Source: a bacterium | Lineage (GTDB): Bacteria > UBA8248 | NCBI GenBank assembly: GCA_965213625.1 | Contig: CBDBZU010000004.1 | Location: 2,784,001 to 2,848,000 of the forward strand | Length of the DNA: 64,000 nucleotides | Direction of reading: 5' to 3' | Shown: positions 8,192-12,524 of the stretch, piece by piece | Numbering within the stretch: position 1 is the first letter of the stretch | Layout: each line of letters starts with the position of its first letter | The notes under the pieces: model-generated | Told to the model about the DNA's origin: nothing | Seen by the model: only the letters and a program-made list of their open reading frames with translations | Database searches by the model: none | Translations under genes and position numbers: made by a program

Positions 8192-9088
8192 TTAATTCAC
8201 ACCTTTCGCTTTCGGCGCCAGCCCCAGCGCCCGTCTTTTCCGGATGACGCCCGAGAGGCGGTACCATGCCGCGCGGCCGGGGTCGACCCGTGAGCCACGC
8301 TCGATGAGGCGCGAGGCATAGTCCAGCTCCTTGTTCAGGTAGACGAGCAGGGAGGCGAGGTTCAGGAGCACGCCCGTGTCCTTGGGCGATAATTCCTCGG
8401 CCGCCTTGAGTATCTTTTCCGCCTCTTCGTAGCGGTACTGGGAGACCAGGTACTTGGCGTACCTGTTCGAGACGACCGGGTTCTCGGGGTCGAGTCCGCG
8501 GGCTTTGCGATATGCGGCGAGCGTTTCTTCGAGATCACCCGCATCGTCCATCATCTTCGCCAGGGCGAGCCAGGCGTCCACGTTTCCCGGGTTGATTTTC
8601 AGATCATCGCGAATGAGCTTGAGAGCAGCCTCGTCATTTTTTTTCTCAAGGAGTCCTAAGGCGCGCTCGTAATGCGCGCTCGTCGTTTTCTGTAAAATCG
8701 AAAATCCCTCCTCCGACTCGATGATTCTCGACGTCGCCCCGAGTTTCAAATCCTGAACCTCGGCCCGGACGCCGACGCTGAATTCAGAAGGCTCCGCATT
8801 TCGGATGGCTATGGCTTTATCCTTGAACTCGAGGGCCACCTGGCGGAAGGGGATTCCGAGAATGGCGGTCTTGTCATACGCCTCTTTCGCCAGGTCGTAA
8901 GTGGGAAGCGTCAGGACGCGGAAAAAGTGCGGGTCTTCCGCTTTTTTCTCAGGCTTTGGTTTTGGCTGGAGTACGGTCTCCTTCTTCTCTTTGGGAAGAA
9001 AGAGAGCGCGGAAGTTCGCACAGCCCGTCAGCAGCAGAAATGCCGCCGGCGCGACGAAGATTATCCCCAGCCGCCTGTCTCCTCGCAT
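8192..9088 (-). CDS. Lipoprotein with a parvulin/PpiC-like segment and TPR repeats
   Basis: Lipobox LLLTG-C; LKLGATSRIIESEEGFSILQ resembles a rotamase C-terminus; TPR-type repeats (INPGNVDAWLALA, LDPENPVVSNRYA, LSPKDTGVLLNLA). Confidence 0.75.
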   Translation of the reverse strand: MRGDRRLGIIFVAPAAFLLLTGCANFRALFLPKEKKETVLQPKPKPEKKAEDPHFFRVLTLPTYDLAKEAYDKTAILGIPFRQVALEFKDKAIAIRNAEPSEFSVGVRAEVQDLKLGATSRIIESEEGFSILQKTTSAHYERALGLLEKKNDEAALKLIRDDLKINPGNVDAWLALAKMMDDAGDLEETLAAYRKARGLDPENPVVSNRYAKYLVSQYRYEEAEKILKAAEELSPKDTGVLLNLASLLVYLNKELDYASRLIERGSRVDPGRAAWYRLSGVIRKRRALGLAPKAKGVN

Positions 9089-9095
9089 AACTGTG

Positions 9096-9728
9096 TCAGG
9101 CGTCCGCGGTTTCCGCCACGGCGCGCTCGAAAGTTTTCATGAAAACCTCCATCGGCTGAGCGCCCGTGATTCTGTAGTTGTTCGCAAAATCGACCGTGGG
9201 CGTGGACTGTATCCCTGAGTTCAGCGCCTCGACGTGATCCGCAAAAACGCGCTTTTCCATCTCCGGGTCGGCCATGACCTCGCGCATTATCGCGGGCTCC
9301 GCCCCCAGCCGCTCGGCGGCGGCCACAAGCACGTCGGTGTCGTCGATGTTCCGGCACTCGACCAGATGCGTTCGTTCCACGGCTTCAAGGTACTCGCCCT
9401 CGCGCTCGGGGAGTTGGGTGGCGAAGGCCTTGATGGCGATCGCCCCGGGGGTGGAATGGGGATAGGGGAAATCGCGGCGCGCCATGAGTTCGGGGTTGAT
9501 CGCCTCGCCCCCGGGATGGCCCTTCGCCATCGCCCAGTGTCCCATGATGGCTTCTTTGCGGGTCGGGCGATGGTCCGGCTCGGGCGAGAGGAGAAATGCG
9601 CGATATCGGATGGCCAAGCGGCCGTCTGTCAGCTCCGTCAGTTTTCGCAACCGCACGGTTGCGATCAGGCACCAGGCTCAGTGTACGCAGTAGGTGTAAG
9701 TGGCTTCTACGACATGTTCGTTTGGCAA
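9096..9728 (-). CDS. DsbA/FrnE-like thioredoxin-fold selenoprotein (UGA read as Sec at 9680-9678)
   Basis: SD GAGGA plus TTG at 9728 gives MPNEHVVEATYTYCVH-U-AWCLIATVRLRKL, in frame with the listed 9096-9656 ORF; C-terminal GIQSTPT..ITGAQP is DsbA-like. Confidence 0.85.
9645..9664 (-). promoter_or_regulatory. Bacterial SECIS-like hairpin
   Basis: mRNA UCGCAACC-GUGC-GGUUGCGA is a perfect 8-bp stem with a G-initiated apical loop, starting 14 nt after the in-frame UGA. Confidence 0.75.
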
Positions 9729-9807
9729 TGCGAGTTCCTCAACGTTCGTCGGAATTGACAGGCAATCCTTTCATCTTGAGCAATTCGGCGCAATCGCCGG
9801 ACGCGAA

Positions 9808-10488
9808 TCAGCGCAGATATTCCCGCGTATGCCGTGCGGGCGAGGCGTTTCGGGAGAGGCGGCCTTCCAGGGCATCCAAATCGTCCGCCTCGTCGACGTC
9901 GCGCCATTCCGGGAGGAGGGAAGTCCCGATGCCGAGCGCGCGCGCCTTCTCCATCGTGCGCGTTAGCACCTCGCTCGTACTCCAGGGGATGCCGGTGAAA
10001 ATTTCAGGCGCGAACCGGTTCATCCCGACGAGGTAATAGCCCCCGTCCGCCGCGGGCCCGAGCGTGATCTTGGCGTCATCCACGCAATCCAGGTTCTCAA
10101 AAGCATCGAGCAGAACTTCATGCGGCAAGTCCGGAAAATCCGTGCCGATGAGCACCGCCCGCCTCCCGCCCATCAGGCACCGTCCCAGAGCCGCCGCCAT
10201 GCGCGCGCCAAGGTCCGCGCCCGTTTGCGCGCGGTGAAAAAATGCGCCGGGCAGCCAGTCGGCGAGCGGGAATTCATCGAGCGATTCTCCGCGTTCCAGC
10301 GCCCATTCGCAGACGAGGGCGACGCCCGGCCTCGCTTCGGTGAGCGCGCGTGCCGTCTCGGCGGAGTCCAGCAAAAAACACTTGTAAAGTCCCGCTGCGC
10401 CCTCATACCCGAAACTTTGGGCGAGGCGCGTCTTTACCCGGCCGGCGAGGGGTGGTTTGGCGAAAAGGATGAGAGATTCGGCCGCCAT
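9808..10488 (-). CDS. DUF2064/TIGR04282-type CofC-like transferase
   Basis: LFAKPPLAGRVKTRLA, QTGADLGARM, IGTDFP, LGPAADGGYYLVG, IPWST and WRDVDEADDL motifs. Confidence 0.9.
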   Translation of the reverse strand: MAAESLILFAKPPLAGRVKTRLAQSFGYEGAAGLYKCFLLDSAETARALTEARPGVALVCEWALERGESLDEFPLADWLPGAFFHRAQTGADLGARMAAALGRCLMGGRRAVLIGTDFPDLPHEVLLDAFENLDCVDDAKITLGPAADGGYYLVGMNRFAPEIFTGIPWSTSEVLTRTMEKARALGIGTSLLPEWRDVDEADDLDALEGRLSRNASPARHTREYLR

Positions 10489-10598: not shown

Positions 10599-11042
10599 AT
10601 GGAATTTAACCAGGAGATTACGGTCGCCGCCCCCCGGGAGAAGGTGTGGGATTTCATCTGGCAGGTCGAGGAGTTCGCCGCCTGCGTACCCGGCGTGAAG
10701 GACGTTGAGAAAATAGACGACGCGACCTACGGCGTTCGGGTCGAGCAGAAGGTCAGTTTCCTGAAGGCGAGCTTTCAGCTTCAGATCAACATCGAGGAAG
10801 TCCGCGCGCCCGAGTACATCCGCACGGTGGGCGAGGGGAAGGATTCGAAATTAGCGGCGAGCCTCAAGCAGAAAAACGAGGTGACGCTCGAGGCCGTCTC
10901 CGAGAACGAAACAATAGTGCGCATTGACTCGAGCGTCGACGTTTTCGGAAAACTCGGCTCGCTCGGCTTCACCGTCATCAAGAACCAGGCGAACAAGATT
11001 TTCTCCGAATTCGCAAAGAACGTGAAAGCGAAGGTGGAATAA
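10599..11042 (+). CDS. coxG: CoxG-like SRPBCC family protein
   Basis: APREKVWDF..FAACVPG and GKLGSLG..IKNQANKIFSEFA pattern. Confidence 0.8.
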   Translation: MEFNQEITVAAPREKVWDFIWQVEEFAACVPGVKDVEKIDDATYGVRVEQKVSFLKASFQLQINIEEVRAPEYIRTVGEGKDSKLAASLKQKNEVTLEAVSENETIVRIDSSVDVFGKLGSLGFTVIKNQANKIFSEFAKNVKAKVE

Positions 11043-11164
11043 TCTTCCCCCGCGCCGCTCCGTCCGGGGAGTTGTGAGCTTCGCGCGCTCCTCGGATCGT
11101 CGGCAAACTACGCCTCTTCCGGTCCAATTTTGCCGCATTACCCCCGATCCAAAGTGGCCAGTTT

Positions 11165-11319
11165 CGTCATTCCGGCGAAAGCCGGAATCCATTTTCCCTC
11201 GGCCACCGCCGAGGGTTCCTGATGGAGAGTGCCTGGGAAAGGCTGCTCACGGCGAAAAAAGGAGCCACGTGCGAGTGGACGAAAAGGCATAATGGATTCC
11301 GGCTTTCGCCGGAATGACG
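11165..11319. repeat. REPIN-like inverted doublet of CGTC-tagged palindrome (left of the nuclease)
   Basis: CGTCATTCCGGCGAAAGCCGGAATCCA at 11165-11191 and its exact reverse complement at 11293-11319. Confidence 0.92.
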
Positions 11320-11344
11320 GTGAAAGACCAAGAAAGTAGGAACA

Positions 11345-11632
11345 ATGAAGCAGCCCTGCGTCTACATTCTCGCCAACAAGTCTCGCGGCACGCTCTATAT
11401 CGGCGTTACGTCCGACCTTCTCCGTAGGATCTGGCAACATAAGAATGGTACAGCGAAAAGTTTCACGAAGCGTTACGGCACCCAAACGCTGGTCTGGTAT
11501 GAGAGCCACGAAACGATGGAGAGCGCAATTGCGCGTGAGAAGAGCATTAAAAACTGGCGGCGTATATGGAAACTCGAACTGATCGAAGAGGACAATCCGA
11601 CGTGGCGTGATTTGTATGAAGATATTATCTGA
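11345..11632 (+). CDS. Small stand-alone GIY-YIG nuclease family protein
   Basis: VYILAN..TLYIGVTSDL.RR..QH, AIAREKSIKNWRR.WKLELIE..NPTWRDL. Confidence 0.92.
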   Translation: MKQPCVYILANKSRGTLYIGVTSDLLRRIWQHKNGTAKSFTKRYGTQTLVWYESHETMESAIAREKSIKNWRRIWKLELIEEDNPTWRDLYEDII

Positions 11633-11680
11633 AATACCTTCCGGCTTTTCGCGCTACCCCGACCTTGGTTTTGCCTTGCT

Positions 11681-11730
11681 CGTCATTCCGGTGTCAGTCC
11701 CGACTGAGGAAGGAGGGGCTGCGGAATCCA
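11681..11730 (+). repeat. Interrupted copy of the CGTC palindrome
   Basis: CGTCATTCCGG...GCGGAATCCA with about 29 nt in the loop; its downstream flank (TTTTCCCT.GGCCACC) matches that of the 11165 copy. Confidence 0.75.
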
Positions 11731-11851
11731 TTTTCCCTTGGCCACCGGCGAGGACTTCTGATGAGGTGTCCCTGTAAAGGCTGCGCGTGGCATGTTTTTC
11801 GGAACTTCAGGATTTGTTGAAAACTCCTCTTCGCTCGAAAGTGATCACTGC

Positions 11852-11989
11852 CGTCATTCCGGCGAAAGCCGGAATCCATTTGCGGGCGCGGGTGTATGAA
11901 CAGCGGCGTTTCATTCCCCACCGATGCGCGGGAACCCTGACGAAAGGCAAAAGGCGTAACAATGGATTCCGGCTTTCGCCGGAATGACG
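11852..11989. repeat. REPIN-like inverted doublet of CGTC-tagged palindrome (right of the nuclease)
   Basis: Exact 27-mer at 11852-11878 and its reverse complement at 11963-11989. Confidence 0.92.
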
Positions 11990-12047
11990 TTGGCACTTTC
12001 GATGGGGGTCAATAATCCATTTGAAGGGCTCTTTCACCAACCCCCCC

Positions 12048-12524
12048 TCAGGGTCGCTTGACGATCCACTCCTCCACCAGTTCACAGCCGCTCTCGCGGT
12101 AGAGCGCGGATATCGGGCAGCGCCCGTGATGCTGGCGTTTTAATTCTTCCACCCGCTCGTCGGACTCATCGGTGGTCAAGTGAATCTTCGCCTCCACGTA
12201 ATCGAAGTTGGGGCTGATGCCGTTGTCCGGGTCCTTGGCGCCCCGGGGGTCGGCCGTGCCTCGAACCTCCACCTCCTGGGCGATGACGTTGAAATCAAGA
12301 CCCTCGGCCACCTTGTTCGTAATGACCGTGATGCAGGCGGAAAGCGCGCCGAGCGCCAGTTCACGCGGCGTGGGGCCGGTGTCGGTTCCGCCGCCCTGGG
12401 CGGGTTCATCGGCGACGAAGTCGTGCTTGCGCGCTTTTAACTCGACCCGGCAGCCCTCCGAGCGCCTGGCTCTCACGCGGCGCTCCTGCTTGGCCATCAC
12501 TTCCTTGTCTACGGATTCCACCAT
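12048..12524 (-). CDS. OsmC/Ohr family protein
   Basis: ADEPAQGGGTDTGPTPRELALGALSAC and RCPIS, with both Cys present. Confidence 0.9.
   Translation of the reverse strand: MVESVDKEVMAKQERRVRARRSEGCRVELKARKHDFVADEPAQGGGTDTGPTPRELALGALSACITVITNKVAEGLDFNVIAQEVEVRGTADPRGAKDPDNGISPNFDYVEAKIHLTTDESDERVEELKRQHHGRCPISALYRESGCELVEEWIVKRP

Follow-up and report, generated by a model that had tools for sequence, protein, structure and literature searches.

We analysed a stretch of 64,000 nucleotides (nt) from a bacterium of the lineage UBA8248 (GenBank assembly GCA_965213625.1, contig CBDBZU010000004.1, positions 2,784,001 to 2,848,000 of the forward strand; hereafter the window), in which positions 9096..9728 of the minus strand hold a gene that reads as a DsbA/FrnE-like selenoprotein. 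Its coding sequence comprises 210 codons followed by a TGA stop (9098-9096), with a second, in-frame TGA at 9678..9680 that is read through in the translation as selenocysteine (Sec, residue 17). The gene opens with a TTG start codon at 9726..9728, 16 codons before the Sec codon, and a Shine-Dalgarno-like GAGGA lies at 9736..9740 with a 7 nt spacer to the start. After the TTG, the frame runs through 15 sense codons ending in ...YTY-C-V-H, then the TGA, then A-W-C-LIA, and this TTG is the only ATG, GTG or TTG between the upstream in-frame stop and the TGA. The open reading frame (ORF) listed by the gene caller, 9096..9656, begins at a GTG within the loop of a hairpin described below and encodes 186 amino acids that lack the redox motif. 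An earlier note on this DNA had proposed that a DsbA/FrnE-like gene was hidden beyond the listed ORF, and the GAGGA, the TTG at 9728 and the read-through frame are all where it had placed them.

A sequencing error does not account for the TGA. In four public DNA-type sequencing runs, the contigs contain this stretch with the TGA unaltered, and not with the TGC or TGT that the note had named as a refuting outcome; the four runs belong to a single study with no more than three samples, which may be the source of the assembly itself, and are not independent. TGA also serves as an ordinary stop codon here: the stop of the window gene is itself TGA, and at the corresponding place the orthologues stop with TAA, TAG or TGA.

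Orthologues were searched for across whole genomes, with stops read through, in 51 genomes of the phylum (Nitrospinota by record labels). They were found in 25 of the 51, at 48-100% identity and with exactly one TGA each, and the TGA is the same codon in 25/25. On metagenome contigs, the TGA was present in the five members whose site was visible, a sixth being cut off at the contig end. The codons 5' of the TGA conserve the protein and vary synonymously (four codons for Thr, two each for Tyr and His). In the window's taxonomic family, all 21 loci have a start codon 16 codons before the TGA (TTG in 20, ATG in 1); in a second family, 4/4 loci have a TTG 14 codons before it. Purine-rich motifs precede the conserved start in the orthologues. 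Clade members were seen only in records labelled Nitrospinota/Nitrospinaceae or in unlabelled metagenome-assembled genomes (MAGs) and metagenomes.

We also scanned the DNA of genome contigs and of metagenome contigs, each with two peptide patterns, one of which was the motif written with Cys. The genome-contig scan returned 49 stretches with 21 relatives, all of them known Sec-clade loci, and the metagenome-contig scan returned 237 stretches with 17 relatives. Neither scan gave a form of the clade with Cys in place of Sec, with the proviso that divergent forms may be missed by such patterns.

Just 3' of the UGA, where the note had predicted a selenocysteine insertion sequence (SECIS), a SECIS-type hairpin occupies 9645..9664 of the minus strand. 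It consists of an 8-bp stem without mismatch (arms 9664-9657 and 9652-9645) and a 4-nt loop, GUGC (9656-9653), begins 13 nt past the TGA, and in isolation folds with -12.9 kcal/mol. Window-wide, perfect 8-bp hairpins with loops of 3-10 nt begin at 42 of 128,000 positions, so that about 0.004 would be expected per TGA in a 12-nt zone. Six of the 2,156 TGAs in the window bear such a hairpin, and the TGA at 9680-9678 is the only one of the six in a coding frame. Bacterial SECIS elements are described as stem-loops shortly after the UGA whose small apical loop contains a G (PMC1088965). The first base of the loop in this clade is G in 25/25 orthologues, the loops being GUGC, GGGC or GGUC. A scan of 9400-9900 with Rfam gave neither SECIS nor any other family, its sole match being a chance CRISPR-DR (E = 7).

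In the alignment of the stem, 96% of the cells are paired over the 25 orthologues, which make up 22 distinct rows. Five of the stem pairs do not vary, two show one-sided changes (A-U to G-U and U-A to U-G), and the stem of the second taxonomic family lacks the outer two pairs and is reduced to a 6-bp core. Because the stem encodes a conserved peptide, codon use was compared gene-wide, at the 41 columns where a residue with 4- to 6-fold degeneracy is retained in at least 24 of the 25 sequences. Only four of these columns use a single codon: one is the start TTG, and the other three, ACC, CGG and TTG, belong to the stem. The only codon of the stem that varies changes A-U to G-U. CGG and TTG, as used in the stem, are not the gene's usual choice for Arg and Leu. 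In a sister clade with 38% identity to the window clade, a 7-bp hairpin of unrelated sequence has its first nucleotide at the same position after the UGA, and the same Arg-Leu is encoded there by AGG/CUA, compared with CGG/UUG in the window clade. Taken together, the perfect stem, the synonymous-site constraint and the sister-clade hairpin support the view that this hairpin behaves like a bacterial SECIS element.

The note had also raised the possibility that the genome has no Sec machinery. In fact, selA, selB, selD and tRNA-Sec are all present, each above its curated cut-off. The selA (564 bits) and selB (388 bits) genes adjoin each other, selD (333 bits) has an in-frame TGA of its own, and the tRNA-Sec reaches 75.9 bits (cut-off 47), with the anticodon TCA assigned by ARAGORN. 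In BSepDB, genomes labelled Nitrospinota have 48-54 selenoprotein genes each and are listed among the richest (PMC13326102).

The read-through protein matches PF01323 (DSBA-like) with 46.7 bits against a cut-off of 25.6, over residues 15-198. With the UGA read through, the match begins at profile position 8; for the truncated ORF, it begins at position 19. An AlphaFold2 (AF2) model made with a 74-row alignment has a predicted local distance difference test score (pLDDT) of 96.8 and a predicted template-modelling score (pTM) of 0.92. Strand 1 of the model comprises residues 7-13 and helix 1 starts at residue 18, and thus Sec17 is predicted to cap helix 1, as the corresponding residue does in CxxC proteins. 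The top structural matches by Foldseek were 2IN3 (template-modelling (TM) score 0.84), YjbH, FrnE, SCO1869 and DsbM, followed by kappa glutathione transferases and classical DsbAs, and the closest solved chains by sequence were SCO1869 (E 1.6e-6) and FrnE (E 6e-4). Because only 16 residues precede the Sec, the protein would be cytoplasmic and without a signal peptide (no predictor was run). A periplasmic DsbA has a signal peptide at its N-terminus; here, strand 1 of the fold begins as early as residue 7 and runs to residue 13. We consider it highly probable that the product is a cytoplasmic FrnE/DsbA-like thiol-disulfide oxidoreductase of 210 residues with Sec as its first redox residue.

The residues around this Sec were compared in an alignment of eight clade members, five paralogues and 61 other full-length representatives. 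The latter were taken from the best 150 of 762 matches in a representative library and were required to have a C..C motif near the N-terminus. The TGA column is the first Cys of CxxC in 61/61 of these Cys representatives, a count that is partly due to the selection, since picking by C..C biases the Cys columns, although not the Asp column. Thus the aligned residue in the homologues is Cys, not the Trp or other non-Cys residue that the note had considered as a contrary outcome, and its placement of the UGA at the first Cys of the redox motif is borne out. Cys20 (codon 9669..9671, minus strand, like the other codons given here) is the resolving Cys of UxxC.

At the third residue ahead of the redox residue, all eight clade members have Cys, whereas the 66 others (61 representatives and five paralogues) all have Asp. 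This Cys14 (9687..9689), the extra Cys to which the note had drawn attention, occupies the position of the family's constant Asp and is encoded by TGC in 25/25 orthologues. Among the full-length rows in the best 150 of the 762 library matches, none has Cys at the Asp position. Immediately before the redox residue, the clade has His (8/8, compared with 0/66 of the others), and the 61 representatives have L, V, A, M, I or S; His16 (9681..9683) is found in 25/25 orthologues, as CAC in 21 and CAT in 4. The residue after the redox residue is Ala in the clade, compared with Pro in 55/66 others. Further along, residue 125 (9354..9356), which adjoins the family's conserved Glu, is Cys clade-wide (in six diverse and eight aligned orthologues), compared with 6/61 representatives. 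Over the orthologues as a whole, the motif C-V-H-U-A-W-C has two exceptions only, one A-to-S and one C-to-R.

In a maximum-likelihood tree of 52 rows, the clade forms one group with support 100/100 on a long stem branch (1.07). It is nested in a larger group (95/75), in which nearly all other rows have His-Asp before the redox residue. The tree is midpoint-rooted only, and the polarity of the change relies on the Asp in all other rows. Judged from these aligned sequences, the CxxUxxC arrangement with a third Cys in place of a constant Asp is the unusual feature of the clade, and the Asp-to-Cys swap is new here. The term 'CxxUxxC' was absent from the literature searched, supplements aside, and the searched literature on DsbM, FrnE, Rv2466c and YjbH held nothing on the role of the Asp.

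The core of the finding is ordinary: the protein belongs to a selenoprotein family that is already known, and its active site has been rebuilt. As the note had stated, DsbA-like UxxC selenoproteins exist; they were first reported in 2005 as nine sequences of COG2761 from the Sargasso Sea metagenome (PMC1088965). A 2026 review sets them out as DsbA-like 'form 1' (UxxC), beside a 'form 2' with DxxUP (PMC13188914). The window protein has in common with form 1 the PF01323 domain, Sec at the first CxxC position, Cys at +3 and a small-loop hairpin containing G after the UGA, and both are routinely truncated by gene callers. The window clade differs in having Cys for Asp, His for a hydrophobic residue, Ala for Pro and the extra Cys125, where the Asp three residues before the redox residue is a hallmark of the relatives that we examined and not a published defining feature. 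Cys forms are described as widespread for the form 1 family, whereas none was found for the window clade.

Two paralogues in the same genome also belong to PF01323, and each has one in-frame TGA at the same motif position and 27-30% identity to the window protein. The first (G000:C4:2987906-2988454; L105 207-800, minus strand; 83.9 bits) has S-D-F-L-U-P-W-C with the canonical Asp, and almost all genomes of the genus have a counterpart that likewise contains one TGA. The second (G000:C4:3655010-3655546; L106 211-762, minus strand; 54 bits) has H-E-Y-H-U-P-W-A, with Glu for Asp, His before Sec and no resolving Cys. Its homologues, with one TGA, are found in many genomes of the phylum, and it may be the review's DsbA-like 'form 2'.

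Members of the sister clade, seen on metagenome contigs, are likewise DsbA-like selenoproteins with a short N-terminus and a hairpin at the same nucleotide. Unlike the window clade, they keep the Asp, have Leu before Sec, and exist in both Sec and Cys forms: L093, L094, L096 and L097 read H-D-V-L-U-V-W-C, and L095 has Cys. In L095, which has TGT at the Sec codon, a 6-bp hairpin is found at about the SECIS place, and it may have survived from a recent change of Sec to Cys.

Two further systems invite comparison. FrnE of Deinococcus radiodurans (PDB 5CNW and related entries) has the same fold (Foldseek E 5.5e-10, TM 0.75), and both it and the window protein are placed in the cytoplasm and have the redox motif where helix 1 begins. 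FrnE is described as a cytoplasmic disulfide reductase of the DsbA family, whose C-terminal CxxxxC tail is proposed to regenerate the active site (PMC8945050). The two proteins differ in that FrnE has CPWC with Cys, whereas the window protein has Sec and Cys14; moreover, the CxxxxC tail is missing from the window protein, which has no Cys after residue 125, as is also the case in six aligned orthologues. GrdB of glycine reductase has the motif UxxCxxC, as listed in the 2026 review (PMC13188914). Like the window protein, it has three redox-capable chalcogens at two-residue spacing, one of them Sec; in GrdB, however, Sec comes first and not in the middle, and the fold and enzyme complex are unrelated.

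In the mechanism that we infer, translation would begin at the TTG at 9728-9726, and the hairpin 13 nt past UGA codon 17 would recruit SelB and Sec-tRNA(Sec), such that Sec would be inserted and translation would not terminate. By analogy with the family, Sec17 at the N-terminus of helix 1 would attack a substrate disulfide or mixed disulfide, and Cys20 would then resolve the mixed selenenylsulfide, as it does in other UxxC proteins. The site of the clade would have been rebuilt around this pair, with Cys14 replacing Asp, His16 a hydrophobic residue and Ala18 Pro, and with Cys125 added. Our best guess, at about even odds, is that Cys14 would act as a second or alternative resolving thiol, or as a relay thiol, for Sec17, with His16 tuning the chemistry. 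Such a relay by Cys14 would make a C-terminal CxxxxC tail of the FrnE type unneeded for regeneration.

Several observations weigh against a functional selenoprotein with a SECIS element at this locus. The read-through genome search found no orthologue in 26 of the 51 phylum genomes. One orthologue, L025 (G008:C1:3513813-3514442), has CGC (Arg) at Cys20 with the rest intact, compared with Cys in the other 24 of 25, and this is either a genuine variant with a single Sec or a misassembly in a single-contig MAG. Another, L047 (G032:C1:4225294-4225880), has a frameshift after about residue 138, its C-terminal part matching in another frame, and is either a pseudogene or affected by a sequencing error. 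Because of this Arg and this frameshift, the gene is taken to be dispensable or error-prone in some lineages. As to the hairpin, the stem also encodes the conserved peptide A-T-G-R-L, and part of its conservation is a constraint on the protein. None of the eight stem pairs shows a two-sided change among the 25 orthologues, and the 71-nt region folds no better than shuffled sequences (z = -0.48). Given this last result, we placed weight on the local hairpin and on the codon statistics.

A second reading accepts the selenoprotein as an ordinary UxxC protein and regards Cys14, His16 and Cys125 as structural or pKa-tuning stand-ins for the Asp, with no third redox partner at the site. We consider this reading possible, although on balance improbable. 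In its favour, the paralogues of the same genomes, with D-F-L-U-P-W-C, make do with UxxC alone, the clade is narrow, having been seen only in Nitrospinota-labelled records or unlabelled MAGs, and many residues changed together on its long stem branch. Against this, an Asp that is constant in 66/66 other sequences has been replaced by a Cys kept as one codon in 25/25 orthologues, down to 48% identity, and it is unlikely that a thiol only three residues away from a selenol would take no part in redox chemistry.

Some further readings bring in the neighbouring genes. On the minus strand at 9808..10488, 79 nt before the selenoprotein start, lies a gene for a TIGR04282/DUF2064 (PF09837) protein (174.8 bits against a cut-off of 134), named 'arsenosugar biosynthesis glycosyltransferase' by NCBIfam. 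On the other side, a gene for a TPR-repeat protein with a lipoprotein-like N-terminus (8192..9088, minus strand) begins 7 nt past the selenoprotein stop. No terminator-like site was found on the minus strand between the selenoprotein and TPR genes, and, to judge by this layout, the two are probably co-transcribed. The order TIGR04282-selenoprotein-TPR is found in 19/19 loci of the genus and, more loosely, in two more genera of the family, and synteny of the TPR neighbour is limited to the window's taxonomic family. A TIGR04282 gene lies upstream in 20 of 24 orthologous loci, all of one taxonomic family, and in 0/4 of the second family. There the neighbours vary: they are DUF3179 (three loci), a sulfatase, DegP and, at one distant locus (L061), a heavy-metal P-type ATPase with a Zn/Mn-type ABC binding protein also nearby.

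Nor do the genes keep company across genomes. TIGR04282 is found in 49 of the 51 phylum genomes, with or without the selenoprotein, compared with 25 of 51 for the selenoprotein itself. ArsS (TIGR04167) is found in 40 of the 51, and no ArsS match was obtained in any of the seven second-family genomes; four of these seven are carriers of the selenoprotein. ArsS (TIGR04167), TIGR04283 and TIGR04282 are scattered in the window genome. A link to an arsenic pathway was considered and set aside: the phylogenetic profiles and distant neighbourhoods give nothing beyond shared ancestry. Because the gene order is confined to one family and the profiles are discordant, we treat the adjacency of TIGR04282 as a lead and not as evidence.

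This bears on two related ideas about the site. One is a His-assisted three-chalcogen centre, made up of Cys14, His16, Sec17 and Cys20 and perhaps Cys125, that would either act as a ligand site for a metalloid, a soft metal or a small cluster or carry out a selenenylsulfide relay in two steps; we regard it as unlikely. The other, which we think unlikelier still, is that the same residues, Cys14-(His16)-Sec17-Cys20 and perhaps Cys125, form a putative metal or metalloid site for As(III), a soft metal or an iron-sulfur (Fe-S) cluster and do not serve disulfide exchange, the bound species being handled or sensed, possibly together with the TIGR04282 gene. The note had likewise suggested that a three-chalcogen site could allow tridentate binding of a metal or of a metalloid such as As(III), or else alternative resolving cysteines. 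The chalcogens at i, i+3 and i+6 and the adjoining His are invariant in the clade, and elsewhere in the family these positions hold constant residues. The name of the TIGR04282 family, the presence of ArsS and TIGR04283 in the genome and the metal-related genes near L061 point the same way. However, the TIGR04282 linkage is a matter of one family, the gene is nearly universal in the phylum regardless of the selenoprotein, no ArsS was found in the second-family carriers, and the neighbours of the distant orthologues vary.

Finally, that the TGA is a true stop, either in a decaying gene or with the 186-residue product from GTG 9656 lacking the redox motif as the only product, is hardly credible: gene callers do give the downstream ORF alone, none of the 21 public proteins found extends over more than 88% of the read-through protein, and Rfam matched nothing at the hairpin, but in 25/25 genomes the TGA, the upstream start and the 16 upstream codons are under protein-level selection, the hairpin shows constraint at synonymous sites, the genome has the full Sec machinery, and the truncated product would lose strand 1 and the beginning of helix 1.

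Some features of the surrounding DNA were recorded in passing. Upstream of the TIGR04282 gene and divergent from it, a gene on the plus strand (10599-11042) encodes a CoxG/SRPBCC-fold protein (PF06240, 79.9 bits), which is found at 77-99% identity in 19/19 loci of the genus. Next to it, at 11145-11992, is a nest of short repeats, made up of four copies of a palindromic unit of about 30 nt, present in both orientations, and two more 50-nt direct repeats. These repeats surround a GIY-YIG ORF at 11345-11632 (PF01541, 63.5 bits), and the nest yields many spurious short ORFs. Further on, an OsmC-like protein (PF02566) is encoded at 12048-12524 on the minus strand; it reaches only 55 bits with the NCBIfam model for OsmC-related (seleno)proteins, for which the cut-off is 95, has no in-frame TGA, and is apparently a Cys form. 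In the second family, the DUF3179 genes (PF11376, about 356-366 bits) lie directly downstream of the selenoprotein gene (L061 4080-5237, L063 10090-11298, L064 8029-9222), and their frames are open, with no TGA. DUF3179 is counted among selenoprotein families in the 2026 review (PMC13188914).

Returning to the selenoprotein itself, because public sets hold only the truncated product, the annotation of these selenoprotein-rich marine and sponge-associated genomes misses its active site. If the site is ordinary, the value of the finding would lie in the corrected annotation and in one more documented SECIS element. If a three-chalcogen centre is true, it would be a new functional class of selenoprotein and could tie to the unexplained TIGR04282 gene in the window's lineage, and the finding of Sec forms only would mean that selenium is indispensable for the chemistry. 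With a constant Asp turned into Cys, a His beside the Sec and no Cys form found, the clade is a natural experiment on what a selenol achieves beyond a thiol in the thioredoxin fold.

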